DNA from: Candidatus Promineifilaceae bacterium
GTDB taxonomy: Bacteria; Chloroflexota; Anaerolineae; Promineifilales; Promineifilaceae
Direction of reading: 5' to 3'
Assembly: GCA_965223395.1 (NCBI GenBank)
Contig: OZ244996.1
Span: 2,064,876-2,128,875 of the forward strand
DNA length: 64,000 bases
The notes under the pieces are model-generated. The model did no database searches and had not been told where the DNA came from. It saw only the letters and a list, made by a program, of their open reading frames with translations. The translations under genes were made by a program, and so were the position numbers. Positions 40,572 through 57,937 of the stretch are shown piece by piece (within the stretch, counting starts at the first letter, position 1; each line of letters begins with the position of its first letter).

Positions 40572-42874
40572 ATTCTGTCAGGTTCAGATTCCCGAATAGC
40601 GAAAATGAGCAAGGCATCGTCTAACACAAACAGCGGGCGGGCGGCTTGCGCCAGCCATCTTTCGCCGTCGAGTTCCAAACTGATTTCGGCTGATTGGGGC
40701 ATATATCGGTTTGCCAAAATCTCCCTCAACAATGCCGGCATCTCTCTTTCTGGCTCCTTATATCGAATAAAAGATTTATCCTCCATCACCGCTTCTACAA
40801 TTTGGGCGCCTGGTTGGCTATCGTCAGGCACAGGCACATCTACCGAAGCCAACTCAAGCCCGGGGATAGATTTAGGCGTTGAAGAAGCCGATTCTAAATT
40901 GTCAACCAGCGCCTGCCATTTGGGAGTCGCTTTCGCCTTGCCATCCGTCAATTCCCATAACCCCCACATCTGATTGTCGTAGCCGCTATAAATAGAATAG
41001 GCGCAATGCAGCCCGCCGCCCAATTGCCGCCAGCCATCCATAAAACGTTGGTAAGCTGCCCCGGCAAGCCGGGATCGATTGTAGGATTGAAAGAGCGTTT
41101 TCAGCGGGGCGCTGCCGGCATTCAGATGTTGACCCCACTCATAGCTCCACAACGCAACCCCAGCCTGATCCGCCAACGCTTTATGTTGGGCGCATGCCGG
41201 CAAAACCGCCGCATCGATAAAGTCCACTATTTGCTGATGTAAATGCTGTGCATCTGCCGCCTGGCTAATGCCCTGCCCAAAATAGGGGGCGACAGCCACC
41301 GCTGCCGGACGATAGCCGCCCAACGCCTGCAACAATTGTTCGGCGATCCAGAGGTTAGCCGCCTGACCAGATATAACCACATCTCCATCATCGCCAACCA
41401 TTTCAATCAATTTTTGGGTTTGGCTGGCTTGAAAAGCGATAAATGAATAGGTTGGATTCTCGAGCCCGCCCCGTTTTACGGCGTAATGATGTTGGTCGAA
41501 CTGATTGTTCCACAGTTCATTTGAAAATTCAAAAATCGGGGGAAATTCTGCATTGTCAATGGCATAGGTGACCATCTGCCTCATCAATTTGTTTTTAGCC
41601 CGATGGGGAATGCACAGCCAGGGACGCGCCCGAAAATGGTTGGCGCACTTAATGATGATTTCTAATGGCACGCCGAGAAATTCGTCCCAAGCGCCCTCCT
41701 CATATTTCCAATTTTTCTCTGTTTCGCCGATATATCGGTGCGGCAAATCTGACCAGCGGCGGGCGGGATTGTTGTTGATTTTTTGCCAATCCATAAAACG
41801 AATGACGTCGAATTTCGCCAATTGCATCTCTTCCAACATCTGAAAATTTTTTCCATCTTCAGAAACTGCGGTTGCCGGCAATGCCTCGAAATGACCCACG
41901 TTAATGCCGGCATTCAGCTTTTTCTTTTTTTCTTTTGGCGGCTCAGTGGGTTGTTCGATCGGCGCTGGCTCTGGGATTGGCGTAACCGGGATAATGAGCT
42001 GGTAGGGGGTTTTATCTTTCAAATAGCGGGCAAGTTTGTCGCTAGCCGCCTCTATGTTAGGGTGGTGTGACATCCAATCGCCATAGGTCCAAGCGCAAAA
42101 CGCCACGATGAGATAATGCTCTGGCTTTAGACACCATTTGTCAAATCGTTCATAATCTGCCATTACTTGGTCTGTGCCGGCAAAACCTACCCCCCCATTT
42201 TGCCCCGCCTCGCCAATCACAATCGGGATATGTACTCCTTGCGACGCCAGATAGACCGCCTCTTCAAATGGGCGGGCGGTATTGTCAGTTGATGGGGAGC
42301 CGTCGGGCATCGTCAACATTTTTTCCGCATTCAACGGGACGCCGCCATAGGCATGCCGGCAATACAAATGCCCACCCTGCCGCCCCCGCTCCAAATGGGG
42401 AACCACTCGATCAACCCAGGGTTGCCAATCGGGCGAATCGCCGGCAAAACCAGTCAACGCTAGTCGGGCGCCCTTCGCTTCGAAAAACGCCATCAACCCC
42501 CGCTCATATGCCAACACATTTCGCAGCGATTTGACGCTCTCCGGCGTGTCCCCCCTGCCGCCCGTCTCATTTACTGGCTGAAAATAGACATTGTCATACC
42601 GTTCATGAACGGGTTTAAATTTTTCCCACAATTTAGCTCCCCAATAGTCGCTAGCCGACTCAAAAGCGCGTTGTTCGCTGATATGGTCGATATCGCCGGG
42701 GGCATCTTCGTGATTGTGCACCGTTTGGGTCCGCCAAATCTTAATGGTGGATGGCGGACATTCATCGAACGCCCCAGCTTCCAAGGCAACGACTGCCGCT
42801 GGCGCCGCACGCGCCACATCCCCATACCCTCGCCGACTGCCTTGATTTACATGAATGCCCAACTTGGTGAACAT
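40553..42874 (-). CDS. Two-module putative glycoside hydrolase (TIM-barrel GH-like domains) with uncharacterised C-terminal domain
   Basis: 773 aa; no signal peptide; Pro/Glu/Lys linker PIPEPAPIEQPTEPPKEKKKK between modules; FEFSNELWN resembles GH clan-A NEP acid/base motif. Confidence 0.4.
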   Translation of the reverse strand: MFTKLGIHVNQGSRRGYGDVARAAPAAVVALEAGAFDECPPSTIKIWRTQTVHNHEDAPGDIDHISEQRAFESASDYWGAKLWEKFKPVHERYDNVYFQPVNETGGRGDTPESVKSLRNVLAYERGLMAFFEAKGARLALTGFAGDSPDWQPWVDRVVPHLERGRQGGHLYCRHAYGGVPLNAEKMLTMPDGSPSTDNTARPFEEAVYLASQGVHIPIVIGEAGQNGGVGFAGTDQVMADYERFDKWCLKPEHYLIVAFCAWTYGDWMSHHPNIEAASDKLARYLKDKTPYQLIIPVTPIPEPAPIEQPTEPPKEKKKKLNAGINVGHFEALPATAVSEDGKNFQMLEEMQLAKFDVIRFMDWQKINNNPARRWSDLPHRYIGETEKNWKYEEGAWDEFLGVPLEIIIKCANHFRARPWLCIPHRAKNKLMRQMVTYAIDNAEFPPIFEFSNELWNNQFDQHHYAVKRGGLENPTYSFIAFQASQTQKLIEMVGDDGDVVISGQAANLWIAEQLLQALGGYRPAAVAVAPYFGQGISQAADAQHLHQQIVDFIDAAVLPACAQHKALADQAGVALWSYEWGQHLNAGSAPLKTLFQSYNRSRLAGAAYQRFMDGWRQLGGGLHCAYSIYSGYDNQMWGLWELTDGKAKATPKWQALVDNLESASSTPKSIPGLELASVDVPVPDDSQPGAQIVEAVMEDKSFIRYKEPEREMPALLREILANRYMPQSAEISLELDGERWLAQAARPLFVLDDALLIFAIRESEPDRIYRFAA

Positions 42875-43002: not shown

Positions 43003-45363
43003 ATGAGTACCAAAAGCTTCGGACAACGCATTAAACGAAACGAAGACCCCCGTCTGCTGATGGGGCAAGCCCTCTTTGTGGATGATATTCAACTGCCAAA
43101 GATGGTACACCTCGCCTTCGTCCGCTCCCCTTATGCCCACGCCCGCCTGCTGAGCATTGACATCAGCGAGGCGGAACAAATGCCCGGCGTGGTCGCCATT
43201 TACACCGCCGAAACGCTTGGCGATTATTGGCAAAAAGGTCCCCTTCTCGTCCCGCCGCCCCCCATCGAAGGGATGGCGTTTAACGAGCGCACCCAAGTCC
43301 CTTTGGCAAAAGATAAGGTGCGGTATGTGGGCGAACCGGTGGCGGTGGTGGCGGCAGAAAGCAGATATTTGGCGGAGGATAGCGCCGGCATGGTGTGGGC
43401 AGATTACGAACCATTAGAGCCAGTGGTTACGATGGATCAAGCGATTTCCGCCGATGCGCCAACCGTACACGACGACGTGCCACTGGTTGAGGGGAAACTG
43501 AACAACATCAACGCCCATTTGACCCAAGTTAAGGGAGATGGTAGAAAGTTTGATGAGATTGCAGAAAACGCCCACCATCTGGTCAAAAGGCGGTTTTATT
43601 ACGACCATGGGGCGTCGTCGCCAATGGAAACGCGGGGCATTGTAGCAGATTGGGATAAGCGTGCCGGCAAAATGACGATTTGGGACACCACCCAAGCCCC
43701 CGTTTTTATTCGCAACGGCATGGCGGCGTATCTAGGACTATCCGAAAACCAAGTGCGGGTGATCGCCCCCTTTATTGGCGGCGGCTTTGGTCCCAAAATT
43801 ATGATGTTTTACCCTGCCGAAATGCTCACCCCCTGGATTGCCATGCAACTCAATCGCCCTGTCAAATGGATTGAAGATCGTGCCGAGCATTTTGTTGCCA
43901 CCACGCAGGAACGTGACCAAATCCATGAGGCAGAGATGGCTTTAGACGAAAAAGGACGCATTTTAGCTATTCGTGATCGCTTTTTGCACGATGCCGGCGC
44001 TTATGCCCCTTACGGCTTGACAGTGCCCCTCAACAGCCAATGCACCTTACTGGGCTGTTACGACATCCCCCATTACTTCAGCCAATTTAGCTCCCTGTTT
44101 ACCAACAAGCCCATCGTCACCCCCTACCGAGGAGCGGGCAGGCAACATGGGGTGTTTGTGATGGAGCGATTGCTGGATATTGCCGGCAAAGAGCTAGGGA
44201 TTGACAAGACGGAAATGCGACGACGCAACTTTATCCCGCCTGATAAATTTCCCTACCAAAATGAAATCATCTACCAGGATTTTGCCCCGCTCACTTACGA
44301 CAGCGGAAATTACGAACCGGCGTTGGACAAGGCGTTGGAGATGATCAACTACGACCACTTTTACGCTAAAACAAAGCCCGAAGCGGAAAAAGCGGGCAAG
44401 GCGGTCGGGCTAGGCATCGTTTGCTATGTGGAAGGGACGGGGATTGGACCTTATGAAGGAGCGCGGGTGCAGGCGCAAAACAATGGACGGGTCAGCGTAG
44501 CGACAGGCATTGGCACGCAAGGGCAGGGACATTTTACGGTCTTTGCCCAAATTGTGGCGGATCAGTTGGGGGTGGATGTGGCAGATGTGGATGTGGTAAC
44601 GGGGGATACGGATCAATTTCATTGGGGCGCCGGCACTTTTGCCAGCCGAGGGGCGGTGGTTGCCGGCAACGCTATCAACGAGGCGGCAAAAGATGTGCGG
44701 AGTAAAATCTTGAAGCTGGCAAGCGATACGTTAGAAGCAGATGAAGTGGATATTGAGTTGGCTGAGGGGACAGCACGGGTTAAAGGGTCACCCGATTCTG
44801 CCATCACATTGGGGCAGTTGGCGCAAATGGCAAACCCGATGCGGGGGGCGGTCAAGCCGGGCACAGAGCCAGGGCTAGAATCGAGCAACTATTTTGGTCC
44901 TGAGTATGGGGCAACGGCAAGCGGCGTTCACGCCATGATCATCGAGATTGATCGGGAGACGATGTTGCTGGAGATTAAAAAGTATGTCGTCGTGCATGAT
45001 TGTGGGGCGGTGATCAACCCGCTCATTTTGGATGGGCAAATTCATGGCGGGGTGGCGCAAGGCATTGGCAATGCCTTTTATGAAAAGCTGGCGTTTGATG
45101 AAAATGGGCAGTTGTTGACTGGCTCGTTTATGGATTATTTGTTGCCGACGGCGTTGGATGTACCGGGGATGGAGATTGACCATATCACCACCGAATCGCC
45201 GTTAAATCCGTTGGGCATCAAAGGGGCGGGGGAAGCGGGGGCGATTCCGGTGGCGCCGTTGTTTGCTCAGGCGATAGAGGATGCGTTGGGAATGCCGGCA
45301 CTCGAAATTCTGGAAATGCCGCTTAGCCCCAGCCGTCTGTGGGAGTTGGCTGAAGAGGTGTAG
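43003..45363 (+). CDS. Xanthine dehydrogenase/CO dehydrogenase family molybdopterin-binding large subunit (form II CoxL-like)
   Basis: N-terminus RIKRNEDPRLLMGQALFVDD; form-II active-site loop PYRGAGR; 786 aa; no CoxM/CoxS-like genes adjacent. Confidence 0.8.
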   Translation: MSTKSFGQRIKRNEDPRLLMGQALFVDDIQLPKMVHLAFVRSPYAHARLLSIDISEAEQMPGVVAIYTAETLGDYWQKGPLLVPPPPIEGMAFNERTQVPLAKDKVRYVGEPVAVVAAESRYLAEDSAGMVWADYEPLEPVVTMDQAISADAPTVHDDVPLVEGKLNNINAHLTQVKGDGRKFDEIAENAHHLVKRRFYYDHGASSPMETRGIVADWDKRAGKMTIWDTTQAPVFIRNGMAAYLGLSENQVRVIAPFIGGGFGPKIMMFYPAEMLTPWIAMQLNRPVKWIEDRAEHFVATTQERDQIHEAEMALDEKGRILAIRDRFLHDAGAYAPYGLTVPLNSQCTLLGCYDIPHYFSQFSSLFTNKPIVTPYRGAGRQHGVFVMERLLDIAGKELGIDKTEMRRRNFIPPDKFPYQNEIIYQDFAPLTYDSGNYEPALDKALEMINYDHFYAKTKPEAEKAGKAVGLGIVCYVEGTGIGPYEGARVQAQNNGRVSVATGIGTQGQGHFTVFAQIVADQLGVDVADVDVVTGDTDQFHWGAGTFASRGAVVAGNAINEAAKDVRSKILKLASDTLEADEVDIELAEGTARVKGSPDSAITLGQLAQMANPMRGAVKPGTEPGLESSNYFGPEYGATASGVHAMIIEIDRETMLLEIKKYVVVHDCGAVINPLILDGQIHGGVAQGIGNAFYEKLAFDENGQLLTGSFMDYLLPTALDVPGMEIDHITTESPLNPLGIKGAGEAGAIPVAPLFAQAIEDALGMPALEILEMPLSPSRLWELAEEV

Positions 45364-45416
45364 TGGGATGAAATGCAATTAGGAAAAATATTGACAAACA
45401 TCTGCCATGACGATAG

Positions 45417-45554
45417 CAAAAGATACCAAGATGTATGCCTATGATGCCTACATCTTGGATTGTGCGTTGAGACATGTAGCTCCCTTATTGACGTTAGACA
45501 GAAAACTTGCTGTTGTTGCACAAAGGCTCGGAATTGAGGTTTTAGAGGTATAAA
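45417..45554 (+). pseudogene. Remnant C-terminal fragment of PIN-domain (VapC-like) toxin
   Basis: 46-codon ORF ending DAYILDCALRHVAPLLTLDRKLAVVAQRLGIEVLEV, matches PIN-domain C-terminal conserved region; N-terminal approx 90 aa missing. Confidence 0.5.
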
Positions 45555-45555
45555 T

Positions 45556-45774
45556 ATGCACGTTTACACATATTCAGAAGCCCGACAAAAGTTGGCTCTT
45601 GTACTTGAGCAAGCTGAATCAACAGGTAAAGTTATCATCCGGCGAAAGGATGGACGCACTTATGCCTTAACCCCTGAAAAAGGTATCACATCACCTTTAG
45701 ATGTGCCGACGATTGAAGCAGACATTACCACAGAGGAAATCGTCAAAATTGTTCGTGAAGGACGGGAAAGGTAA
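45556..45774 (+). CDS. Phd/YefM-family type II antitoxin
   Basis: MHVYTYSEARQKLALVLEQAESTGKVIIRRKDGRTYAL matches YefM/Phd N-terminal consensus; 72 aa. Confidence 0.65.
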   Translation: MHVYTYSEARQKLALVLEQAESTGKVIIRRKDGRTYALTPEKGITSPLDVPTIEADITTEEIVKIVREGRER

Positions 45775-45797
45775 AGGGGCGGGTAGAAGCGGGAATG

Positions 45798-45870
45798 CCG
45801 TTGTTTGCTCAGGCGATAGAAGATGCGTTGGGAATGCCGGCATTGGAGATTTTGGAAATACCCCTTAGCC
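45798..45870 (+). repeat. About 73-bp direct duplicate of the coxL-like 3' end (copy 1 at 45256-45328)
   Basis: ccgttgtttgctcaggcgatagaRgatgcgttgggaatgccggcaYtSgaRattYtggaaatRccSctt shared, approx 90% identity. Confidence 0.8.
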
Positions 45871-45971
45871 TCATGCGTACCCAAGATAGTTACAGGATCG
45901 AAATAATGTCAATCTTTGACCATTTTCCCAAAAATAATACGACATCTATATAGCATGAATAGGGGTTTTTC

Positions 45972-46733
45972 TTGACTGATTCTACCACTTTAGAAAAAGC
46001 AAAATTATACGAAAAATACCGTCTTCCGTATGCAAATGCAGTTGCAGACGATCTCCTGAATAGGATCGGCAAATGTGAGGTTATTGCCGATATTGGAGCA
46101 GGAACAGGTCAACTGACGCGGCTATTTGCAAATAAATGCAAGAAAATCTACCTTGTTGAACCAAGCCTTGCTATGCGAACAGTTGCCTCTTTCTCTTGTG
46201 GCAAATTCAAGACAGTCGAAATTTGTGCAAACTCTGCGGAACAAATAGCTGTAGCAGAGAATAGCATCGATCTTATCGTCATAGGAAATGCCTTTCACAG
46301 ATTTAGACCGGAAGCTACTAAAGAACTTCGTCGTATCTTAAAAAAGCATGGTTGGGTTGCACTGTTTTCATACAAATTTAAAAATCAAGCCTTTACACAA
46401 ATGCTCTTTTCAAAACTTGCTACATTACGTAGCTTATCAGGAAAAATTGACAAGGCTTGGCACAAGACGCCTATTCAAGAATTATTTGGCGGATGTCAAA
46501 CCCAAACAGTAAGTTATCCTCAATCACATGAACAAGATTGGACAGCTTTTTTCGGCGCAGCGTGTTCAGGTATTGAAGCTCCAGAACGTACAGACCGAGA
46601 ATTTGCCCAATTTGAGCGAATCAATCGTGAAGTATTTGATAAATTTGCGGTAAATGGAATATTTCAGATCGATTTCGAGACTCATGTATTATTCGGACGA
46701 CTATTTTGTTTGGGCGCCAATGAGATTTCGTAA
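45972..46733 (+). CDS. Class I SAM-dependent methyltransferase (AT-rich, likely horizontally acquired)
   Basis: VIADIGAGTGQLT motif I; GC clearly lower than flanks; TTG start; no TGCCGGCA palindromes. Confidence 0.65.
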   Translation: MTDSTTLEKAKLYEKYRLPYANAVADDLLNRIGKCEVIADIGAGTGQLTRLFANKCKKIYLVEPSLAMRTVASFSCGKFKTVEICANSAEQIAVAENSIDLIVIGNAFHRFRPEATKELRRILKKHGWVALFSYKFKNQAFTQMLFSKLATLRSLSGKIDKAWHKTPIQELFGGCQTQTVSYPQSHEQDWTAFFGAACSGIEAPERTDREFAQFERINREVFDKFAVNGIFQIDFETHVLFGRLFCLGANEIS

Positions 46734-46806
46734 GTGATGATGCTGGGACATTTCCAGTGGCGCTGCTGTTTTCTAATGTTATTGAAGCGTCAAGATTGAC
46801 ATCGCC

Positions 46807-48060
46807 ATGATTAACTTTGACAAAAGAAGCGCAAAAGGCGGGGGAATCAAACTTAATCTGCTCATTGCCGGCATCGCCACCCTGGTTACCCTATACGCCA
46901 TCGAGGCCTTCCTCTTTTTCAACGGCAACCCGCTTGATTATCGCAGCCCCCACTTCATCGCCGCCCGGCAGCAAGGCGTCGATTTCGACCGACGCACCCC
47001 GCTACAACTCGTCTCCGACTTACGCGATAGCGGGGAAGCGGTGTACCCATTCGTTTCGCCCAGCGCCTTCCTCGACTTTTTGCCCCACATTGACGGGCGA
47101 GACACCTACGCCCTGACCAGCGTCGCCGACGTCCGCACCGTGTACTGTAACGAGAGCGGCGATTACATTTTGTATGAGAGTGACCGATATGGTTTGCACA
47201 ATCCCGACCAGGTGTGGGATGTTTCGCCAGCAGATATTCTTGCCCTGGGCGACTCATTCACGCAAGGGGCTTGCGTTTCGTCAGACAAAAACATAGTCGC
47301 TTTGCTGCGCAGCCGTTATCCTAACACAATCAATTTGGGGGCAAACGGCAATGGTCCATTAAGCGCGTTGGCAGGGCTGATGGAGTATGGCGCGGTTTAT
47401 CAACCCAAAAAGGTATTGTGGTTTTACTTCGAAGCCAACGATCTGGGCGATTTGCTGATAGAGCGAGACAATCCGATTTTGGCTCGCTATTTGAGTGGAG
47501 ATTTCAGCCAAAATTTGATCGCCAGACAAGACAGCATCGACGCCCACCGCCGCGACTATGTGGAGGCGTTGTTGACAGATGTTCAACAAGGGCGACGGCA
47601 GCAGGCGTGGGCAACGTTGCGTTTGTACAATTTGCGACGGCTGTTGGGCTGGACGCGAGAAGATGAGGCAGAAGATGCCGGCATCCCCCACCCCATTGCA
47701 AACGCCGCCCTGCCTCCCTACCAACCTGAACCCGATTTGCTCTATGACGAAGCTGCCCCGCTGCTCAAAGAGATATTGTTAACCGCCCAAACGCTGACCG
47801 AATCGTGGGGAGGCGAGCTGATATTCATCTATTTGCCAGATTATCAGCGGTATGCCAAAGATGGGGCGGAAGATCGTCTGTATCGGGGAATTACCATGCA
47901 AAAGTTGGGTGAAACGACCATCCCTATAATTGATATCCATCCCGCATTTGCCGCCCATCCTGACCCTGTTTCGCTATTTCCGTACGGGCTGGAAGGGCAT
48001 TACACCGCAGAGGGATATGCTCTAGCGGCAAAAACGATTCTCGAACGACTTAACCCTTAA
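46807..48060 (+). CDS. Membrane-anchored SGNH/GDSL-hydrolase-like protein (AlgX/AlgJ-like)
   Basis: N-terminal TM; ILALGDSFTQG block I GDS motif. Confidence 0.55.
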   Translation: MINFDKRSAKGGGIKLNLLIAGIATLVTLYAIEAFLFFNGNPLDYRSPHFIAARQQGVDFDRRTPLQLVSDLRDSGEAVYPFVSPSAFLDFLPHIDGRDTYALTSVADVRTVYCNESGDYILYESDRYGLHNPDQVWDVSPADILALGDSFTQGACVSSDKNIVALLRSRYPNTINLGANGNGPLSALAGLMEYGAVYQPKKVLWFYFEANDLGDLLIERDNPILARYLSGDFSQNLIARQDSIDAHRRDYVEALLTDVQQGRRQQAWATLRLYNLRRLLGWTREDEAEDAGIPHPIANAALPPYQPEPDLLYDEAAPLLKEILLTAQTLTESWGGELIFIYLPDYQRYAKDGAEDRLYRGITMQKLGETTIPIIDIHPAFAAHPDPVSLFPYGLEGHYTAEGYALAAKTILERLNP

Positions 48061-48758
48061 GCCGGGCGGCGTTTGGTTCGACGCTTTGCTGGCTTGCCGA
48101 TAAGTTTGGCGATTGCCGGCAATTGCTCCCCCTGCCTCATCGGTGCAGCCACTTTGTTTAACGGCACAGTCGGGGCGGGTTGCGCCATCAACGCCGCCAA
48201 CCGCTCTTCCAATGCCCCTAATCCTGTCTCGCGTACCTGTAACGGCAAACCCAGATAATCCGCCGCTTCTTGGGCTTGCGCCAACAATTGTGGCGTGGGA
48301 TTTTGCGCCAAATACAACGCCCTTTTGTAATGTTTGAAATAGATTTCCTTTAGCTCAGGATGGCGGTCCAACCCCATGCCGCGCATAATCGTCCCTTTAA
48401 AGCCCCGTACCAAATAATCGGTCAGAAAAAAAGTGCCCGGCTCCTCCGCCATCCACTTCTGAAAATCCTCCCCGCCATACATTTCGTAGCAATGGGGTCC
48501 CGCCACCCGCTCTACCCCATGATGCGCCAACAACCCATCCAACTTACCGCCCGTCCCGCAATCGCCAAACAAGACAATCAGCCGCTCGAACTCATTTCGC
48601 AACTCAAGAATGCGCTTTTCTACATCGGGGGGAATGCGATCAACCAGCACATGGTTTAATGCCGGCACAGCTTTAACCTCTGCCTGCCAACCATGCCGTT
48701 GAATCATCTCCAACGTCTCTCGACCCAACGCCCCGCAAATGATAAAAGCCGTCTTCAT
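48057..48758 (-). CDS. DUF1638 domain protein (accessory to corrinoid methyltransferase systems)
   Basis: 233 aa; family typically adjacent to pterin-binding/corrinoid proteins; last gene of minus-strand operon. Confidence 0.5.
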   Translation of the reverse strand: MKTAFIICGALGRETLEMIQRHGWQAEVKAVPALNHVLVDRIPPDVEKRILELRNEFERLIVLFGDCGTGGKLDGLLAHHGVERVAGPHCYEMYGGEDFQKWMAEEPGTFFLTDYLVRGFKGTIMRGMGLDRHPELKEIYFKHYKRALYLAQNPTPQLLAQAQEAADYLGLPLQVRETGLGALEERLAALMAQPAPTVPLNKVAAPMRQGEQLPAIAKLIGKPAKRRTKRRPA

Positions 48759-48770
48759 ACTGCGGCTACA

Positions 48771-49667
48771 TCATCCTCGCCGCCGGCGCCGTTCGCGCCG
48801 TTTTTCCCCTGAGGGGGCAGGCTGACGGTTGGCTTGGATCCAGGCGATACAATTTTCATCGTTGCCCATCATCACATCCGCCGCCATAATCGCCGTTTTA
48901 ATGTGGGATTCAATCGGATTGGTGATAGCGGACGACAAGCCAGCCGCCATCGCCATCGCTAAAAACGTCCCATTCAGCGGACCCCGCTCCGGCAACCCAA
49001 AGGAAACGTTAGACGCCCCACAGCAACAATTGCAACCCAACTCATCTACTACCCGGCGCACAATGGAAAAGACCTGCCTGCCGGCATACCGCATCGCCCC
49101 AATCGGCATTACCAGCGGGTCGATCAACACATCTTGGCGGGGAATGCCATAATCTACCGCCCGTTCTACGATCTTTTTAGCGACGGCAAAGCGCGCGTCG
49201 GGGTCTTCCGAAATGCCCGTTTCGTCGTTGGAGATGGCAATAACGGCGCAATTGTGCTTTTTGACCAGGGGCAGCACCGCTTCCAGCCGCTCTTCTTCGC
49301 CGGTGACAGAGTTGAGCAACGCTTTGCCTTCATACGCCGCTAACCCTTGCTCTAAGGCGGCTACTATCGACGAGTCGATGCTGATCGGCACATCGGTAAC
49401 GGATTGTACGGCGCGGATCGCTTCGGCTAAGATAGCGGGCTCGTCTGCCAATGGAATGCCGGCATTGACATCCAACATATGCGCTCCAGCTTCAACTTGG
49501 GCGATGGCGTCTTTTCTCACCCGATCGTAATTGCCGGCAGCCATCTCTGCCGCCAATAATTTTCGCCCCGTTGGATTTATCCGCTCTCCAATAATGGTAA
49601 AGGGGCGATCCGGGCTGATAATGATGGTTTGCGTTTTGGAACTGATTACGGTTTCAATCTTTTTCAA
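48771..49667 (-). CDS. Pterin-binding methyltransferase (methyl-THF:corrinoid methyltransferase, MetH pterin-domain/AcsE-like)
   Basis: FTIIGERINPTG, DVNAG, and ISIDSS motifs of DHPS-like pterin-binding barrel. Confidence 0.8.
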   Translation of the reverse strand: MKKIETVISSKTQTIIISPDRPFTIIGERINPTGRKLLAAEMAAGNYDRVRKDAIAQVEAGAHMLDVNAGIPLADEPAILAEAIRAVQSVTDVPISIDSSIVAALEQGLAAYEGKALLNSVTGEEERLEAVLPLVKKHNCAVIAISNDETGISEDPDARFAVAKKIVERAVDYGIPRQDVLIDPLVMPIGAMRYAGRQVFSIVRRVVDELGCNCCCGASNVSFGLPERGPLNGTFLAMAMAAGLSSAITNPIESHIKTAIMAADVMMGNDENCIAWIQANRQPAPSGEKRRERRRRRG

Positions 49668-49697
49668 CGTTTATCTCCGCGTTCGCGCTTTAACCAG

Positions 49698-50672
49698 TTA
49701 ACCCCTTCTGCGGCGCCTGGTTCGCCGTTTGGCTTGTCCATTGGTCGAGAATTGTCGCCCTTGCGCCACGATCTCTTCCGCCAAAACCGGTTGTTGTAAC
49801 GCTCTTGCCATAGCGGCAATATGCGCCGGCGTATTGCCGCAGCAGCCGCCAATCAGCCGCGCCCCCAACTTCCGCAGCCGCTGGGCGTACATCCCCATCA
49901 CTTCTGGCGTGCCATTATATTGTAATTGATTGTCTATCCATTCGGGAATGCCGGCATTCGCCTTAGCGATCAGCGGTTGGTTAGGGTCGATCTGGCGCAT
50001 GGCATGAACTACCGCTTCGATCTCATCCACCCCATTGCCGCAGTTTGCGCCAAACGCCAACAAGTTCCAACTCGACATCGTTTCAAACGCTTGTTGAGGC
50101 GTCACCCCCATCATGGTACGCCCTTTGGTATCAAAGGACAGGGTGACGCACAGCGGCTTATCGCTGACGCGGCGCGCCCCCTCCACCGCCGCTTTCGCCT
50201 CGTTGAGGTCGCTCATCGTCTCCACCCAAAAGAGATCGACGCCGCCCGCTTCCAACCCCGTCGCTTGTTCGGCAAAGGCGTCAACCGCCGCCTCATAACT
50301 CATCTCGCCCATCGGCTGCAACAGCTCGCCCGATGGTCCTAATGAGCCAGCTACAACAACCAAATGGGGGGCATCGTCTGCCGCTGCCCGGGCATGTTCC
50401 GCTGCCAAGCGGTTCAGTTCCACCACCCGATCTTGTAAATTATGCAATTTGAGGCGATAACTAGTTCCGCCAAAACTGTTGGTCAATATCAGCCGAGAAC
50501 CAGCCTCGATATACGCCTGGTGCATCCCTTTGATCGTTTCGGGTCGGCTATAATTCCATTCTTCGGGCGGGGCGCCATCGCTTAACCCCTGATCAAACAA
50601 ATAGGTGCCGGTAGCCCCATCGAGCAAAATGATTTCTTGATTGCCTAATAGTTGTTGTAAGGGATTGGTCAT
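49698..50672 (-). CDS. Homocysteine S-methyltransferase domain protein (MetH Hcy-binding module)
   Basis: ILLDGATGT N-terminus; zinc ligands incl. GGCCGNTPAHI; ATG 50672 with AAGGAG upstream. Confidence 0.8.
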   Translation of the reverse strand: MTNPLQQLLGNQEIILLDGATGTYLFDQGLSDGAPPEEWNYSRPETIKGMHQAYIEAGSRLILTNSFGGTSYRLKLHNLQDRVVELNRLAAEHARAAADDAPHLVVVAGSLGPSGELLQPMGEMSYEAAVDAFAEQATGLEAGGVDLFWVETMSDLNEAKAAVEGARRVSDKPLCVTLSFDTKGRTMMGVTPQQAFETMSSWNLLAFGANCGNGVDEIEAVVHAMRQIDPNQPLIAKANAGIPEWIDNQLQYNGTPEVMGMYAQRLRKLGARLIGGCCGNTPAHIAAMARALQQPVLAEEIVAQGRQFSTNGQAKRRTRRRRRG

Positions 50673-50713
50673 TACTCGTTCATTCTCCTTGAGCAAGCGG
50701 GCAACTTTGTAGA

Positions 50714-51436
50714 TTACTTGCTATCTGCAACTTGCAGACCTGTCACTCTTTCCTGGCGGATTTTCATCAACTTTTTGGCGGTATCTACCGCCACAGCAGC
50801 GTCGCGGCAATAGGCGTCAGCTTCAATATCTTCGGCAAACGCTTCATTTAGCGGGGCGCCGCCAACCAGCACGATGATGTCATCTCGAATGCCGGCATCT
50901 TTGAGTTCATTCACCACTACGCGCATGTAGGGCATCGTCGTCGTCAATAAGGCGCTCATCCCCACGATATCGGGATTGTGTTCTTTGATAGCGTCCATAA
51001 AGGATTCGACATCGTTGTTGATGCCGATGTTGAACACCTCAAAGCCGGCTCCTTCCATCATCATCGCCACCAAATTTTTGCCGATGTCATGAATATCTCC
51101 CTTTACCGTGCCAATGACCATTGAGCCCACTTTGGGCGCGCCGGTTTCCGCCAACAGGGGGCGCAATAGCCCCATCCCCGCTTTCATCGCTTTTGCCGCC
51201 ATCAACACCTCTGGCACGAACAAAATGCCATCTCGAAAATCATCCCCAACGATTTTCATGCCGGCAACCAACCCCTTGGTCAACACATCATATGGGGTCA
51301 TCCCCCGATCCAATACCTCTTGCACTTCTTCGACGACCTCATCGGCATAGCCATCATATAAATCCTCCCCCATCAATTCCAACAATTCATCCAAATTCAG
51401 TTCAGAAAGAACGATCTCTTGCTGCTCGTCACTCAC
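50714..51436 (-). CDS. Cobalamin-binding corrinoid protein (B12-binding cap + Rossmann)
   Basis: DIHDIGKNLV (DxHxxG) and SALLTTTM motifs. Confidence 0.85.
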   Translation of the reverse strand: MSDEQQEIVLSELNLDELLELMGEDLYDGYADEVVEEVQEVLDRGMTPYDVLTKGLVAGMKIVGDDFRDGILFVPEVLMAAKAMKAGMGLLRPLLAETGAPKVGSMVIGTVKGDIHDIGKNLVAMMMEGAGFEVFNIGINNDVESFMDAIKEHNPDIVGMSALLTTTMPYMRVVVNELKDAGIRDDIIVLVGGAPLNEAFAEDIEADAYCRDAAVAVDTAKKLMKIRQERVTGLQVADSK

Positions 51437-51552
51437 ACTCGCCTCCGAAAAGGGTTTAAAAATATCCGTTCCATTGTAGCGCTAAATTAAAAACTAGCTT
51501 GGATTCTCGGTAAAATTTGGGCGGAATTCCCGCAGCCAACCAATTGCAACGA

Positions 51553-53574
51553 TCAGATCGCTACTCGGCGTCGCTTTCGACGGCGTTTAGGCTGCTGTTT
51601 TGGCAGTAAGTCCGCCAAATGAGGGAATGAGTCGTTGGCGTGGGGCAGATGGATCGCCGCCACAAACTCCTCCTGAAAACTGGCGTCTACTGCCGTTTCG
51701 ATATAGCGTGTCCAATGGGCGATTTTCTGAGCCTCCTGTCGTTTTTCCTTGTTGAGCAAGGCGATGCGAGCGCCATCGCCAGCGGCGTTGCCTACTGCCG
51801 TCACCTTGTCTAAAGCGCAATCTGGAATAAGACCGAGGATCATGGCGTATTTGGGATCGATGTAGCTTCCAAACGCCCCTGCCAACAAGATTCTGTCCAC
51901 AGTAGAGATGCCGGCATGGTTCATCAACAATTTTGTTCCAGCATACAATGCCGCTTTTCCCAATTGGATGTTGCGCACGTCATCTTGGGTAATAGCAATC
52001 GGCTCGCCGCTGCTGGTTTCCTCTGCCGTCGCCAACAGATATTGTCCTTTGACGCCTTGCCAGGAGATCCGTTCGTGGCTTATCTCTGGGTCAAAGCGAC
52101 CATCGGCGCGGATGATGCCGGCCAGATATAACTCTGCTACCGCTTCGATGATGCCCGACCCACAAATGCCGGCAGCCAACTGAGCCGGCCGTTCTATCTG
52201 CGGGGCGTCATCTGTCAATTGCCAATCATTCGACCACCGCTCTTCGCCAATCAGCCGGAATCGGGGCTCTTTCGTTATGGGATCTATGCGCACCCGCTCA
52301 ATGGCGCCCAACGCCGCCCGCATCCCAAATTTTATTTGCGCCCCTTCAAATGCAGGACCCGTTGGGCTGGAAGCGCTAAATAGCCGCTCTCTGTTGCCAA
52401 GCACAATTTCGGCGTTGGTGCCAACGTCAACCATGAGGGTGATTTCGTCCTGGCGATATGGCGTTTCGGCTATTAACGCCGCCACATTGTCCGCCCCAAC
52501 ATGTCCGGCTTGCGCCGGCAAAATGTGAACATTTGCCCCGGGGTGCAACCGCAACTTTAACAGCCGCGCTTTGTAATCGACCGCGTCGCGGGTAGCTAAA
52601 GCAAATGGCGCGCCCCCCAACTCCACAGGGTCGATGCCCAACGCGATATGAATCATGGTGGTGTTGCCCACCAAAACCGCTTCGTGGATGTCGCGGGCGC
52701 GAATGCCGGCGCTGCGGGCGATACGGGCAGCCAATTTGTTTAAGGCGTCGATGATCGCTTCATGCATTTTGCTCAACCCATCTGCATTCATCATGGCATA
52801 CGAAATGCGGCTCATCAAATCTTCGCCATACGCCACCTGTGGATTCATGGTCGATTCAGTCGCCAACAATTCGCCCGTTCGCAAATCGCACAGATAGCCT
52901 GCCACCGTAGTGCTGCCGATATCGACCGCCAGCCCGTATGCCCCCTCCTGGTAGCCGGGCGACACGTCAATAACCTGTTGATCATTCCATAGAATGACGG
53001 TCGCCTTTCGCCGCCCCTGACGCAATGCGGACTGTAATTTACGCAATGCCGGCAAATCGATGACTAATCCATCCACGCCCCATTGCTCCTCTATCGCTGC
53101 CGCCAACCGCTTCCAATCCCCCCGATGTTCGCCCAGCGCCGCTTTTTCCACTACAACATAATATTGGCGAATGGCGGGCTGAACCGCAATCGTCCGCTCA
53201 GTGGCGGATTTGCGGATGATTTGCTTTCTTCCCCGGCTCTCTTCTGGGATAAAGATCAAAGCGTCCCCATATAGTCGGGCGTCGCATGCCAACCTGCAAT
53301 CGGAAGCGCCTATGCTGGCTAACAACTCCTGTTCCGTGGTCGTCGCCGGGCTTAAATTGCCGGCATCTGAAGCGATGTTATGCTTTTCAAACCGCCCCTC
53401 TTCCAACCGAATTTTGCATTTGCCGCAGGTTAATTTGCCGCCGCAAATACTCTCGATTTCAATGCCCAATTGGCGAGCGGCATCCAGTATGGTTGTGCCT
53501 GCCAGCATTTCGCCCCGCCTGCCTGCCGGCATAAAAATCGCCTGGTATTTTTCTTGGTCATTGAGTTTGGACAT
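51553..53574 (-). CDS. RACo-family ATP-dependent reductive activator of corrinoid proteins ([2Fe-2S] ferredoxin + ASKHA/DUF4445)
   Basis: N-terminal plant-type ferredoxin Cys pattern CGGKLTCGKCK; C-terminal ASKHA ATPase-like 500 aa; 673 aa. Confidence 0.7.
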   Translation of the reverse strand: MSKLNDQEKYQAIFMPAGRRGEMLAGTTILDAARQLGIEIESICGGKLTCGKCKIRLEEGRFEKHNIASDAGNLSPATTTEQELLASIGASDCRLACDARLYGDALIFIPEESRGRKQIIRKSATERTIAVQPAIRQYYVVVEKAALGEHRGDWKRLAAAIEEQWGVDGLVIDLPALRKLQSALRQGRRKATVILWNDQQVIDVSPGYQEGAYGLAVDIGSTTVAGYLCDLRTGELLATESTMNPQVAYGEDLMSRISYAMMNADGLSKMHEAIIDALNKLAARIARSAGIRARDIHEAVLVGNTTMIHIALGIDPVELGGAPFALATRDAVDYKARLLKLRLHPGANVHILPAQAGHVGADNVAALIAETPYRQDEITLMVDVGTNAEIVLGNRERLFSASSPTGPAFEGAQIKFGMRAALGAIERVRIDPITKEPRFRLIGEERWSNDWQLTDDAPQIERPAQLAAGICGSGIIEAVAELYLAGIIRADGRFDPEISHERISWQGVKGQYLLATAEETSSGEPIAITQDDVRNIQLGKAALYAGTKLLMNHAGISTVDRILLAGAFGSYIDPKYAMILGLIPDCALDKVTAVGNAAGDGARIALLNKEKRQEAQKIAHWTRYIETAVDASFQEEFVAAIHLPHANDSFPHLADLLPKQQPKRRRKRRRVAI

Positions 53575-53764
53575 AAAATATCAGTTTGTCGTGATCCGTC
53601 TTGACCCAATTGAGTGAATACGCTTTATCTTCGCTCTGCCACCCCTCCGTTTGTCGCGCCATTCAATTGCGTCATCTTTCCTTTTTGCGATAATTGGAGA
53701 AGTATAACGACAACTACATGGCAAAGCCAAAAATCTTACTATCCCCTAGGAGGAAATTCCCCAA

Positions 53765-55534
53765 ATGAAACGATTAACGCCCGTTCCGTCAGATTTGGAT
53801 ATCGCTCAGGCTGCCACCCCCAAACCCATTTTCGAAATTGCCGGCATGTTGGGTTTAGCCCAAGAGGATCTCATCCTGTATGGACAAGACAAAGCCAAAG
53901 TCCATCTCGACGCTCTGAAGAGGCTAGAAGGGCGACCCAGGGGAAAATATATCGATGTCACCGCCATCACCCCCACGCCGCTGGGCGAAGGCAAAACCAC
54001 TACCACCATCGGCTTAACCCAGGGTTTAGGCATTTTGGGTCACAAAGCTATCGCCTGCATCCGCCAACCCAGCATGGGTCCCACCTTTGGCATCAAAGGC
54101 GGGGCGGCGGGCGGCGGCTACAGCCAGGTTATTCCCATGGAAGAGTTCAACCTGCATTTGACAGGCGACATTCACGCCATCACCGCCTCCCACAATTTGG
54201 TCGCCGCCGCCATCGACGCCCGCTACTTCCACGAAATTCGCTCTTCCGACGAACGTTTGGCGAGAATCGGCTTGGAGCGGCTCAACATCGACCCCTACAG
54301 CCTCACCTGGAATCGGGTGATGGATGTCAACGACCGCGCTTTGCGTAGCGTCATTGTCGGCTTAGGACCTGAATTAGACGGCAGACCGCGCCAGACGGGC
54401 TTCGACATCACCGTTGCCAGCGAAATTATGGCGATTTTAGCTCTGGTAGACGGCACAGATTACGCCTCTACCCTCAAAGATTTACGCACAAGATTAGGGA
54501 AAGTGGTCGTTGGTTCAAATAAAAGCAAAGAGCCAATCACCCTGGAAGATTTACAGGTAGCGGGCGCGGTGGCGGTGCTAATGAAAGACGCCATCCACCC
54601 CACCCTGATGCAAACGCTGGAAGGGCAAGCCGCATTTGTCCACGCTGGACCCTTCGCCAATATCGCCCACGGCAACTCCTCTATCGTCGCTGACCGATTG
54701 GCGTTGCAACTCGGCGACTACGTTATCACCGAATCTGGTTTCGGCGCGGATATCGGCATGGAAAAATTCTTCAACATCAAATGCCGCTATTCCGGGTTAG
54801 CTCCCGACTGTGTGGTGTTGGTGGCTACCATTCGCGCCCTCAAAATGCACGGTGGCGGTCCCCGCGTCGTGCCGGGTCGTCCCCTTGATTCCGCCTACAC
54901 CGAGGAAAATTTAGGGCTTTTGGAAGCGGGATTAGACAATATGCGGGCGCATATCCGCAACGCCAAACGGTACGGCATTCCGGTTGTCGTCGCCGTAAAC
55001 AAATTCCATACCGACACCGACGCGGAAGTGGAGTTGGTTCGCAAAGCGGCGATGGAAACTGGCGCGGAAATCGCTGCCATGAGCGACCATTGGACAAATG
55101 GCGGGGATGGAGCGACCGAGTTGGCGGAAGCGGTGGTTGCAGCTTGCGAAAAGCCGTCTAACTTCGAATTTTTATATCCGCTGGATATGCCAATTAAAAC
55201 GAAAATCGAGACGATTGCCAAAGAGATGTACAGTGCTGGAGAGGTGGTTTTTGAGACTTTGGCAGAAAAACAGATCGCCAGTTATGAAGCAAATGGCTTT
55301 GGCGATTTGCCGATTTGTATGGCAAAAACCCATCTGAGCATCAGCCACGACCCCAAATTGAAGAACGCCCCCTCGGGCTTTACCGTGCCAATTCGAGAAG
55401 CGCGGGCGTCGGTCGGGGCTGGATTCATTTACCCATTGCTGGGCACGATGCGAACGATGCCGGGTTTAGGTTCTAAACCAGCATACATGAATGTGGATAT
55501 CGATGAAAATGGCAGGGTAGTTGGGCTGTTTTAA
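53765..55534 (+). CDS. fhs: Formate--tetrahydrofolate ligase
   Basis: [16 protein letters not shown]-loop and full-length FTHFS similarity; AGGAGG RBS. Confidence 0.9.
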
Positions 55535-55595
55535 TCGTAACTCCCTGAGAAATTGAGAAACCGAGTTTCGTGGGCAAACTCGGTTTCTTTTCTTT

Positions 55596-56840
55596 TTAGA
55601 AGCCGTATTTTTCGGCAAACGCCATCAACGCTTCTTCAAAAACGTTCATTGGGGGTCGAACCAGACCAGCCCCCACCTGCCCAATGCCGGCATCCTTGTG
55701 GGCAATCCCTGTGTTAATGCGCGGCGTTATCCCCAACTCCACCACCTTACGGATATCCACCCCCGTCGGCGTACCGCGAAAATCGAGAGCCGGAATGGTG
55801 AAATGGCTATGTTCAGCGGTGGTGATTTCATACATCTCCAACGTGGCGTTAATTGCATCCTGAGGCGTGCCGCTGATAAAGGTGACAATTGCCGGGGCGC
55901 CCGCCATAGCAAACGCGCCAATGCCGGCAGTTTCCGTAATCGTGCTGTCTCCAATATCCCCACTGGCATCCTCCGCCGTAAAGCCAGAAAAATACAACCC
56001 CTGCGGCTGACCTACCGGACCCGTAAACCAATGGTCGCTCAAGCCGCTCACCCGAATCCCCAACTCCGTCCCGTTTCGAGCCATCACCGTCATGATTGTG
56101 CTGCCCGCCACCCCATGCCCGGCATCCGCCATCGCTTTACACGCCGCCATCACTGGGTTCAACACGCTAAGCGCATTATCCCCCAAAAATTTGAGGATGG
56201 TGGAAGCCACATACCGATTGGTTGTCGCTTTGGGAATGAGCGGAGCCAGCCTAGTCGTGTAAATAATCGAACTCGCTTTGTTGCGATTATGCCCTTCATC
56301 TCCCATGTGCAACGCCTCCGCCAGCAATGCCCGGATGTCGATACCGCCCATCATACCCAACGCCTCCGCCAAAACGGGCGCCATCACATCATTCATCCAT
56401 CGTAATTTGCGGATCACTTCCTCGCTGTAAGCCCCGTAACGCAACACCTTGCCATACCCCTCGTTGAGATTGGAGTACCCTTTATTGCCATGCGTTTCAT
56501 TTTCAACGATGTACAACTGCATAGACGGGGTGGTCACGCCTGCCATGGGACCGACGGCGGAATAATGATGGCACGGAGCGAAATTCACTTCACCCGCCTC
56601 CGCCATGCCAACCGCTTCCGTCTCATTTTTTGCCAACCCTTCAAAAATCAAGCCGCCAATCACCGCCCCCCGCATCGGTCCCGACATCCGTTCCCACTCA
56701 ATGGGGGGACCAGCATGGAGAATGAGATTGTCTGGCATATCGGGGATCAGGTCGCGGGCGGGGGCAATGCCAGTCAAAATTGGACGAGCCGACATCATCC
56801 GCTCTACTGCAGTTTGGTTGGCTTGGTCAATGTTTATCAT
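55596..56840 (-). CDS. DUF1116 family protein (YlbE/AllH-like)
   Basis: 414 aa; N-terminus IDQANQTAVERMMSARPILTG...ILHAGPP resembles YlbE; co-operonic with FdrA. Confidence 0.5.
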   Translation of the reverse strand: MINIDQANQTAVERMMSARPILTGIAPARDLIPDMPDNLILHAGPPIEWERMSGPMRGAVIGGLIFEGLAKNETEAVGMAEAGEVNFAPCHHYSAVGPMAGVTTPSMQLYIVENETHGNKGYSNLNEGYGKVLRYGAYSEEVIRKLRWMNDVMAPVLAEALGMMGGIDIRALLAEALHMGDEGHNRNKASSIIYTTRLAPLIPKATTNRYVASTILKFLGDNALSVLNPVMAACKAMADAGHGVAGSTIMTVMARNGTELGIRVSGLSDHWFTGPVGQPQGLYFSGFTAEDASGDIGDSTITETAGIGAFAMAGAPAIVTFISGTPQDAINATLEMYEITTAEHSHFTIPALDFRGTPTGVDIRKVVELGITPRINTGIAHKDAGIGQVGAGLVRPPMNVFEEALMAFAEKYGF

Positions 56841-56955
56841 TATTCCTCCGTTCTGTTGATAGAGATTTGCAGGATTATAGCTGGTTGTCGGTTAGGGTTT
56901 ACTTTTTGGACGATGGGCGACAAATCATAGATGATAGTTTTTCATTGTACGTGGT

Positions 56956-57777
56956 CTATTGTCCCCAAACCTGCTGAAACAAATCTGGCTGGTAGCTTGC
57001 CCAGATGGTCAGCCAGGGCGGGGCAATGCTTTTGAAATGTTCCCAACTACCCGGTTCCGGTTCGCTTTCTTGGGGCAACTCTTCCCACATGCCCAGAATC
57101 ACCATTTGGTTGCCGGCAATGCCGGCAATCAACCGATTCATCGTATGCCGAAACTCTACCGGACCTTCCACCTCTTTTTTCGTCCCATCCTCACCCTCAA
57201 ACGTCCAATTCAGCTCGTCAAACTCAACTGCACCCGCACGGTAAGGGCTTTTTAGCAGATACCCTTCCCCTGTCCATCCCGTCTCATCCATCCCCATCAC
57301 AAAGGGGTTGTGGCATTGCATCCGGTAGATGCCCCCCGGTTGGAGAACCCGGCGCACATCGGCAAAAACAGGGTCCGGGTCAGGCACAAAGTTGATGGAA
57401 AAGGCGTGGAAAACAAGGTCAAAACTATCATCGGGGAAGCGAGACAAATCCCGCATATCCCCCTGCTCTAATCGAGCAGACAAGCCGTAATGTTGCAATG
57501 CGTCAGCATCCCGTTCTAGTTGGGTAGCAGAAAAGTCTAACACCGTCACATTTGCCTCTAGCAAACCAAAAGCGACTGATTGTTGCCCGCCACCGCCTGC
57601 TAGACAGAGGACGTTTTTGCCGGCAATATCCCATCCCAATTTTCGCAACACCTTTTGTTCATCCACTACTTTCCATGCCGATTCAGGCGTTAAGTCCAAA
57701 AAAGGGCGGGAGTAAGCGACATTTGCTTTTGCCAATGCTTCCCATCTGGCTTGATTGTGCCGAGTTAGTTTATCCAT
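56956..57777 (-). CDS. Class I SAM-dependent methyltransferase
   Basis: VLCLAGGGGQQS motif I, VLDFS motif II; ORF track extends to 57903 through repeat element, start chosen at MDKLTRH (uncertain). Confidence 0.6.
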   Translation of the reverse strand: MDKLTRHNQARWEALAKANVAYSRPFLDLTPESAWKVVDEQKVLRKLGWDIAGKNVLCLAGGGGQQSVAFGLLEANVTVLDFSATQLERDADALQHYGLSARLEQGDMRDLSRFPDDSFDLVFHAFSINFVPDPDPVFADVRRVLQPGGIYRMQCHNPFVMGMDETGWTGEGYLLKSPYRAGAVEFDELNWTFEGEDGTKKEVEGPVEFRHTMNRLIAGIAGNQMVILGMWEELPQESEPEPGSWEHFKSIAPPWLTIWASYQPDLFQQVWGQ

Positions 57778-57937
57778 ATGATTTTCAACTGCCCACAAAC
57801 GATACAGTGAGCCTGTCGTCCATCGTTTGCTGTCACTCATATTGTTGCTGAAGTTTGTTGCTTTGTGTTTGGACGACAGATGGTATTGTTTCTTGTCGTC
57901 CATAGTCCATCGTCTACGGTCTATCGTCTATCATCCA

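Follow-up and report, generated by a model that had tools for sequence, protein, structure and literature searches.

In Phaeobacter inhibens, growth without methionine requires a PF02574 protein, a PF00809 protein, a B12-binding protein, a RamA-like protein with Fer2 and DUF4445 domains, and a DUF1638 protein; the evidence comes from transposon fitness data in which methionine rescued all phenotypes, and the system lacks PF02965, the reactivation domain of MetH (Price et al. 2018, PMC5764234). In Ruegeria pomeroyi, the corresponding proteins were named MtgC (corrinoid protein), MtgD (pterin-binding protein) and MtgE (homocysteine-binding protein), and they are accompanied by RamA and DUF1638 proteins (Mausz et al. 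2025, PMC12478193). Knockouts of mtgC or mtgD in this species are methionine auxotrophs and are also unable to demethylate glycine betaine, a process that uses the MttB-family protein MtgB and in which MtgC and MtgD run in reverse (PMC12478193). The same study reports that some genomes hold both MetH and the MtgCDE system and that part of the environmental mtgC reads is assigned to nonalphaproteobacterial phyla. Here, we describe a five-gene operon in a 64,000-nucleotide stretch of a Chloroflexota genome (Candidatus Promineifilaceae bacterium, GenBank assembly GCA_965223395.1, contig OZ244996.1, positions 2,064,876 to 2,128,875; hereafter, the window) that likely specifies a cobalamin-dependent methionine synthase in modular form, of the MtgC/MtgD/MtgE plus RamA plus DUF1638 type. 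Split methionine synthases repaired by a RACo-type activase have been characterized before only in Alphaproteobacteria; the operon would extend them to Chloroflexota, and as a single operon it is convenient for heterologous reconstitution.

The minus strand carries the five genes from 53574 to 48057; they are tightly spaced and have ribosome-binding sites, and fhs diverges from them:

53574 to 51553, minus strand: RACo/RamA-type activase, 673 amino acids, with Fer2, RACo_linker, Raco_middle and RACo_C_ter domains
51436 to 50714, minus strand: MtgC-like corrinoid protein, 240 amino acids, PF02607 (B12-binding_2) and PF02310 (B12-binding)
50672 to 49698 (possible TTG start at 50696), minus strand: MtgE-like homocysteine S-methyltransferase, 324 or 332 amino acids, PF02574 (E 6e-70)
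49667 to 48771, minus strand: MtgD-like pterin-binding methyltransferase, 298 amino acids, PF00809 (E 1e-28)
48758 to 48057, minus strand: DUF1638 accessory protein, 233 amino acids, PF07796 (E 3e-25), at the distal end of the operon
53575 to 53764: divergent spacer of 190 bp between the activase gene and fhs
53765 to 55534, plus strand: fhs, formate–tetrahydrofolate ligase, PF01268 (E 1e-255), divergent from the operon

A first-pass annotation of the window had described separate homocysteine, pterin and corrinoid genes in an operon that opens with a RACo-type [2Fe-2S]/ASKHA activator and ends with DUF1638, with fhs transcribed divergently from a shared control region of 190 bp. Pfam matches and coordinates bear out this gene content and both ends of the operon, and the spacer has exactly this length; the order in which the genes had been listed is corrected here to activase, corrinoid protein, homocysteine methyltransferase, pterin methyltransferase and DUF1638. 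The annotation had also noted that no SAM (S-adenosylmethionine)-binding reactivation module is present. A profile search with PF02965 agrees, giving zero matches among the plausible open reading frames (ORFs) of at least 150 amino acids in the 64-kb window.

The operon contains the same five protein types, with the same domain architectures, as the systems of P. inhibens and R. pomeroyi, in which PF02965 is likewise absent. However, while the roseobacter genes are scattered over several loci, those in the window form one compact Chloroflexota operon divergent from fhs. Sequence identity to the Rhodobacteraceae copies is 65 to 69% for MtgC, 48 to 52% for MtgE and 38 to 51% for DUF1638. The component-for-component match to the P. 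inhibens system supports the central idea of the first-pass annotation, i.e., a split MetH in which an ATP-driven RACo takes the place of SAM-dependent repair. This idea is already published and GapMind includes a sub-pathway for split methionine synthase; the annotation overestimated its novelty.

Compared with canonical MetH (E. coli, T. thermophilus and human), the chemistry, the three catalytic modules, the zinc-binding Cys triad and the DxHxxG motif are the same. By contrast, canonical MetH is one polypeptide with a C-terminal PF02965 domain and is repaired by flavodoxin/SAM reductive methylation, whereas the modules in the window are separate proteins accompanied by an ATP-dependent RACo. 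In line with this division, each operon protein covers only its own segment of the canonical MetH models (TIGR02082/PRK09490) with 138 to 168 bits against a cutoff of 1010. The best match among solved structures for both the homocysteine and the folate module is MetH of Thermotoga maritima. This protein (TM0268) reportedly has fused homocysteine, folate and B12 modules and no fused reactivation domain, and TM0269 is said to be a separate PF02965-type reactivation protein and not a RACo.

In MtgE, the three cysteines C219, C285 and C286 align to the zinc ligands of T. maritima MetH and are invariant in 20 homologs. MtgE matches the homocysteine domain of the T. maritima enzyme with 162 bits and solved betaine–homocysteine S-methyltransferases (BHMTs) with 55 bits. 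MtgD passes the NCBIfam model NF005719 (349 bits, cutoff 259) and is about as similar to the folate domain of T. maritima MetH (142.8 bits) as to MeTr/AcsE (138 bits); its match to CdhD is weak. The corrinoid protein carries the His-on signature DxHxxG as DIHDIG at residue 114, SxL as SAL at 161, and GG at 192. Its solved relatives rank from the Moorella protein 1y80 (198 bits) through MttC (151 bits) to MetH (∼114 bits), and its top NCBIfam match is MtgC_2 with 211 bits, while the MtgC cutoff of 370 is not reached. Thus, it is nearer to the free-standing corrinoid proteins of methylamine and betaine type than to the B12 domain of MetH. The MtgABC glycine betaine methyltransferase systems of Desulfitobacterium hafniense and Methanolobus and the Eubacterium systems of the MttB superfamily follow the same logic, in which a RamA-type activase accompanies a small corrinoid protein that carries methyl groups between a methyltransferase for the substrate and one for tetrahydrofolate (THF) or coenzyme M. 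They differ from the operon in the window in their substrate module, which here is a homocysteine methyltransferase.

The activase aligns over its full length with RACo of Carboxydothermus hydrogenoformans (PDB 3zyy; E 3e-100), its four Pfam domains are matched with E-values from 3e-08 to 9e-95, and its [2Fe-2S] cluster motif consists of Cys44, Cys50, Cys53 and Cys97. With C. hydrogenoformans RACo and methanogen RamA it shares the architecture of [2Fe-2S] domain, linker, middle and ASKHA domains. In the known systems, these proteins catalyze the ATP-dependent reduction of Co(II) to Co(I) in a corrinoid protein. The window activase differs in its partner, an MtgC-type corrinoid protein rather than the corrinoid iron-sulfur protein (CoFeSP) or a methylamine corrinoid protein, in scoring under the family cutoffs for both AcsV and RamA, and in ending in a polyarginine tail. 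Judged by its score against the NCBIfam AcsV model NF040756 (423 bits, cutoff 800), the activase is not AcsV itself.

Gene content, domains, conserved synteny, motifs for cofactors and metals that are all intact, and homology to the genetically validated system are observed; from them, we infer the activities, the direction of flux in the organism and a role for DUF1638 as follows. MtgD would methylate Co(I) of the free-standing, His-on MtgC with 5-methyl-THF as the donor, and the zinc enzyme MtgE would pass the methyl group from methyl-Co(III) to homocysteine, yielding methionine. When Co(I) is accidentally oxidized to Co(II), the activase, using its [2Fe-2S] cluster and its ASKHA ATPase, would re-reduce it at the expense of ATP, which would make a SAM-binding reductive-methylation domain unnecessary. 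DUF1638 may act as an accessory factor in repair or assembly, and the divergent fhs would connect the operon with the pool of THF-bound one-carbon units.

For DUF1638, no proposal was offered by Price et al. 2018 (PMC5764234). The protein has three cysteines in total, C8, C67 and C90, which are invariant across diverse representatives, and H36 is nearly so. An AlphaFold2 model has a Rossmann-like alpha/beta fold, and no specific solved neighbor was found for it. A metal or Fe-S site formed by the Cys triad is possible.

A scan of genome contigs for homologs returned 80 loci, to which all locus counts below refer. The best loci are 61 to 66% identical and all belong to Chloroflexota (Ardenticatenaceae, Promineofilum/Promineifilaceae, Anaerolineae and Caldilineae); they are followed at ∼45 to 53% by Rhodobacteraceae, other Proteobacteria and Acidimicrobiales. 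The activase gene is present in 31 loci, the corrinoid gene in 26, the pterin methyltransferase and DUF1638 genes in 22 each, metF in 15, metV in 13, mttB in 12 and fhs in 8. In the latter eight, fhs adjoins the homologous cluster in variable orientation. Based on tblastn and ORF clustering, the order activase, corrinoid protein, homocysteine methyltransferase, a stretch of ∼1.7 kb, pterin methyltransferase and DUF1638 is widely conserved in Chloroflexota, and the ∼1.7-kb insert encodes MetV (PF12225) and MetF (PF02219). MetV and MetF make 5-methyl-THF. Three further loci (L013, L024 and L040) have the compact five-gene form of the window. In the closest relatives (L002, L004, L006, L009 and L028), the activase gene is preceded by genes for MttB (PF06253), a GCV_T protein, a DAO oxidoreductase and a DAO plus GCV_T protein, the last of which resembles dimethylglycine or sarcosine dehydrogenase. 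To judge from these predicted products, the arrangement looks like a supra-operon in which a complete route for the demethylation of betaine to glycine is fused to the split methionine synthase. In the gammaproteobacterial locus L058, the genes run BCCT, MetF, DAO, MTHFR, homocysteine methyltransferase, DUF1638, pterin methyltransferase and activase. That the same core lies within the betaine/dimethylglycine/sarcosine operon of relatives supports a corrinoid carrier shared by methionine synthesis and methyl catabolism. In the Rhodobacteraceae locus L066, the gene between the homocysteine methyltransferase and corrinoid genes was expected to correspond to the radical-SAM gene known from P. inhibens, but it does not.

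The window itself differs from these relatives and from S. meliloti, in which an MttB (MtgB) gene lies nearby. A tblastn and homolog search of the 64 kb found no homolog of MttB, MetV, MetF, dimethylglycine dehydrogenase, GCV_T or DAO proteins, and no paralog of any of the five operon genes was found there. In tblastn with two Chloroflexota MttB proteins, the component that would be expected of an MtgBCD betaine demethylase gave no match in the window. Because the operon consists of only the five core genes and the 64 kb contain neither MttB nor MetVF, dedicated methionine synthesis is the best reading of its predicted function.

Several points weigh against this reading. The function of the locus is predicted from sequence, and genes for MttB or for a MetH or MetE of the canonical type may lie elsewhere in the 3.76-Mb genome. 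Because the closest relatives hold the same genes inside a betaine/dimethylglycine/sarcosine catabolic operon and MtgC and MtgD are bidirectional in R. pomeroyi (PMC12478193), the system may also, or mainly, be catabolic. Moreover, an automatic rule names MtgE differently: it scores above the cutoff (391.6 versus 338 bits) of the NCBIfam equivalog NF005718, "betaine–homocysteine S-methyltransferase". In its strong form, which we consider unlikely, the catabolic explanation makes the operon mainly a hub on whose corrinoid protein MttB enzymes encoded elsewhere load methyl groups from glycine betaine or other quaternary amines; MtgD would then transfer them to THF, the one-carbon units would be oxidized via MetF, FolD and Fhs, the last of which would yield ATP and formate, and methionine synthesis by MtgE would be a side branch. 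Such a hub would account for the requirement of MtgC and MtgD for betaine catabolism in R. pomeroyi (PMC12478193), for the MttB, GCV_T, DAO and dimethylglycine dehydrogenase-like genes that precede the operon and the metVF genes inside it in the closest Chloroflexota relatives, and for the BCCT transporter and MTHFR genes beside the gammaproteobacterial cluster; the linkage to fhs, in eight loci and the window, also fits THF-linked one-carbon oxidation. Yet all six catabolic and MetVF homologs searched for are missing from the 64 kb, and the sole substrate-specific methyltransferase of the operon is the homocysteine module, the zinc site of which is intact. Also, mtgE usually lies apart from catabolic genes (Mausz et al. 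2025, PMC12478193), whereas here it is central in the operon. The first-pass annotation had itself allowed for a methyl-THF:corrinoid transfer system feeding an acceptor other than homocysteine. At the level of the family this alternative holds, given the reversal of MtgC and MtgD for betaine and the relatives with MttB, dimethylglycine dehydrogenase-like and MetVF proteins; for the operon in the window, methionine synthesis remains the reading we prefer.

Two other explanations were considered. If the name given by NF005718, which database homologs also bear, were taken literally, the PF02574 protein would be a stand-alone, B12-independent BHMT and its corrinoid neighbors would serve an unrelated reaction. 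We regard this as very unlikely: the score to solved BHMTs is 55 bits as opposed to 162 bits to the MetH homocysteine domain, the gene sits between the corrinoid and pterin methyltransferase genes in a tight operon, and the homologous gene of P. inhibens is needed together with the corrinoid protein for methionine synthesis (PMC5764234). Moreover, the S. meliloti "Bhmt" behind the name has been argued to be MtgE and to lack the betaine-binding residues (Mausz et al. 2025, PMC12478193). The automatic label is probably wrong for these genes. Alternatively, the MeTr/AcsE-like methyltransferase and a RACo/AcsV activase could act on a corrinoid protein supplying acetyl-CoA synthase, as in the Wood-Ljungdahl pathway. 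The matches of the pterin protein to MeTr structures (138 bits) and, weakly, to CdhD, the role of RACo as the CoFeSP activase in C. hydrogenoformans and the adjoining fhs point in this direction, but the corrinoid protein is a small His-on protein of the MtgC/MtbC type and not CoFeSP, the AcsV score is far under its cutoff, and that for the carbon monoxide dehydrogenase/acetyl-CoA synthase methyltransferase model (143 bits, cutoff 370) is also too low. With no acsABCD homolog among the annotated genes of the window and a homocysteine methyltransferase in the operon, a Wood-Ljungdahl-type module is extremely improbable.

The proteins of the operon share a further feature. Using at least six Arg or Lys residues in the last 12 residues as the criterion, we find polybasic C-terminal tails in four of the 45 window proteins, and all four are operon products (hypergeometric P = 3.4e-5). 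The fifth product, the corrinoid protein, lacks such a tail and instead begins with an acidic extension:

51556 to 51588, minus strand: C-terminal tail of the activase, KRRRKRRRVAI
49701 to 49730, minus strand: C-terminal tail of MtgE, KRRTRRRRRG
48774 to 48803, minus strand: C-terminal tail of MtgD, KRRERRRRRG
48060 to 48086, minus strand: basic C-terminal tail of DUF1638, KRRTKRRPA
51368 to 51436, minus strand: acidic extension at the N terminus of the corrinoid protein, (M)SDEQQEIVLSELNLDELLELMG, with seven Asp or Glu and no Lys or Arg

The four products that carry a tail are exactly those that have to act on the corrinoid protein. Tails recur in the related loci, where they are found in 21 of 31 activases, 36 of 69 MtgE proteins and 16 of 22 MtgD proteins, and in none of 13 MttB proteins. 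Altogether, a tail is present in 73 of 122 partner proteins in these loci and in 7 of the 865 remaining ORFs (Fisher P = 1e-68). The tailed MtgE homologs include proteobacterial and actinobacterial ones, and the pattern recurs across phyla; the tails often end in RRRG. Among close database homologs of MtgE, 87 of 120 are tailed. On the side of the corrinoid protein, the N-terminal extension of ∼20 residues (MSDEQQEIVLSELNLDELLELMG) is conserved and the net charge is -23. Comparable extensions are present in 24 of 26 corrinoid homologs, with net charges mostly from -16 to -28, and the two corrinoid proteins that lack one (L052 and L069) adjoin tail-less partners.

We suggest that the tails dock electrostatically on the acidic corrinoid protein and, in that way, substitute for the covalent linkers of MetH. 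Tentatively, and with somewhat more doubt than belief, we propose jointly that tails and acidic peptide form a conserved address system and that DUF1638 is a Cys3(+His) metal or Fe-S protein in ATP-dependent repair. If the address system is real, it would let several partners alternate on one corrinoid carrier. Two observations speak against the tail hypothesis: MttB must also dock on MtgC, yet no MttB protein has a tail (0 of 13), and about half of the MtgE homologs lack one. Neither the tails nor the acidic N terminus turned up when Mausz et al. 2025 (PMC12478193), though not Price et al. 2018, was searched by term, and a literature search on arginine-rich tails in corrinoid methyltransferase systems returned nothing relevant. 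The tails and their acidic counterpart, together with the DUF1638 Cys triad, provide testable hypotheses on the assembly of a split B12 enzyme and on the role of DUF1638.

As for gene starts, the corrinoid gene has a GTG start behind a GGAGG ribosome-binding site and the pterin methyltransferase gene a TTG start behind GGAG. For the homocysteine methyltransferase gene, we take the ATG at 50672 as the most probable start and the TTG farther upstream, at 50696, as less probable, because an AAGGAG ribosome-binding site precedes the ATG and because the product is 100% identical to the database protein P0001, which at 324 amino acids has the same length as the product from this ATG. The fhs product passes the model NF010031 with 822 bits against a cutoff of 800. 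Two candidate control elements were located around fhs:

53730 to 53701, minus strand: weak sigma-70-like site within the spacer between the activase gene and fhs
55555 to 55589: strong hairpin terminator of fhs

Apart from this terminator, promoter and terminator scans gave results at chance level. At its distal end, the DUF1638 gene overlaps a convergent gene for a GDSL-like hydrolase (46807 to 48060) by 4 bp at the 3' ends (48057 to 48060), which therefore leaves no space for a terminator between the two genes. Control of the operon by a riboswitch or leader was considered and rejected after Rfam scans: a scan by E-value of positions 45000 to 58000 found no credible riboswitch or RNA element, the sole match being at chance level, and a scan of nine related loci at the gathering threshold gave only PYLIS_3-like matches within MttB genes. 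PYLIS_3, the pyrrolysine insertion element of mttB, is above this threshold inside MttB-family genes at 13783 to 13882 of L006 and at 649 to 747 of L008; these matches may reflect either a real element or the shared coding sequence of MttB genes without pyrrolysine.

Other genes of the window were annotated in passing. A neighboring class I SAM methyltransferase gene (45972 to 46733) was examined as a possible member of the system and rejected, with 28.9 bits to the model for CpaM, "corrinoid protein-associated methyltransferase", against a cutoff of 180. The gene at 43003 to 45363 encodes a large subunit of an aerobic-CODH (carbon monoxide dehydrogenase)-like (group 5) molybdenum hydroxylase, at 933 bits against a cutoff of 950; because no ORF of at least 150 amino acids lies on its downstream side, it may lack adjacent genes for the small and medium subunits. 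Two ORFs, at 39510 to 40571 (353 amino acids) and 40553 to 42874 (773 amino acids), have no Pfam match at E ≤ 0.001. Just past fhs, genes for a methyltransferase, an acyltransferase and an alpha/beta hydrolase are flanked by a homolog of AllG, an oxamate carbamoyltransferase subunit (55596 to 56840), and by an ORF whose product has CoA-ligase and CoA-binding domains (59449 to 61146). The ORF at 19692 to 20792 encodes a member of baeRF family 10, the bacterial proteins that resemble archaeo-eukaryotic release factors. Finally, a homolog of bacterial indoleamine 2,3-dioxygenase (61143 to 62294; PF01231, E 2e-99) and two "putative cyclase" proteins of PF04199 (36377 to 37252 and 37383 to 39230) hint at a capacity for kynurenine-type tryptophan degradation.

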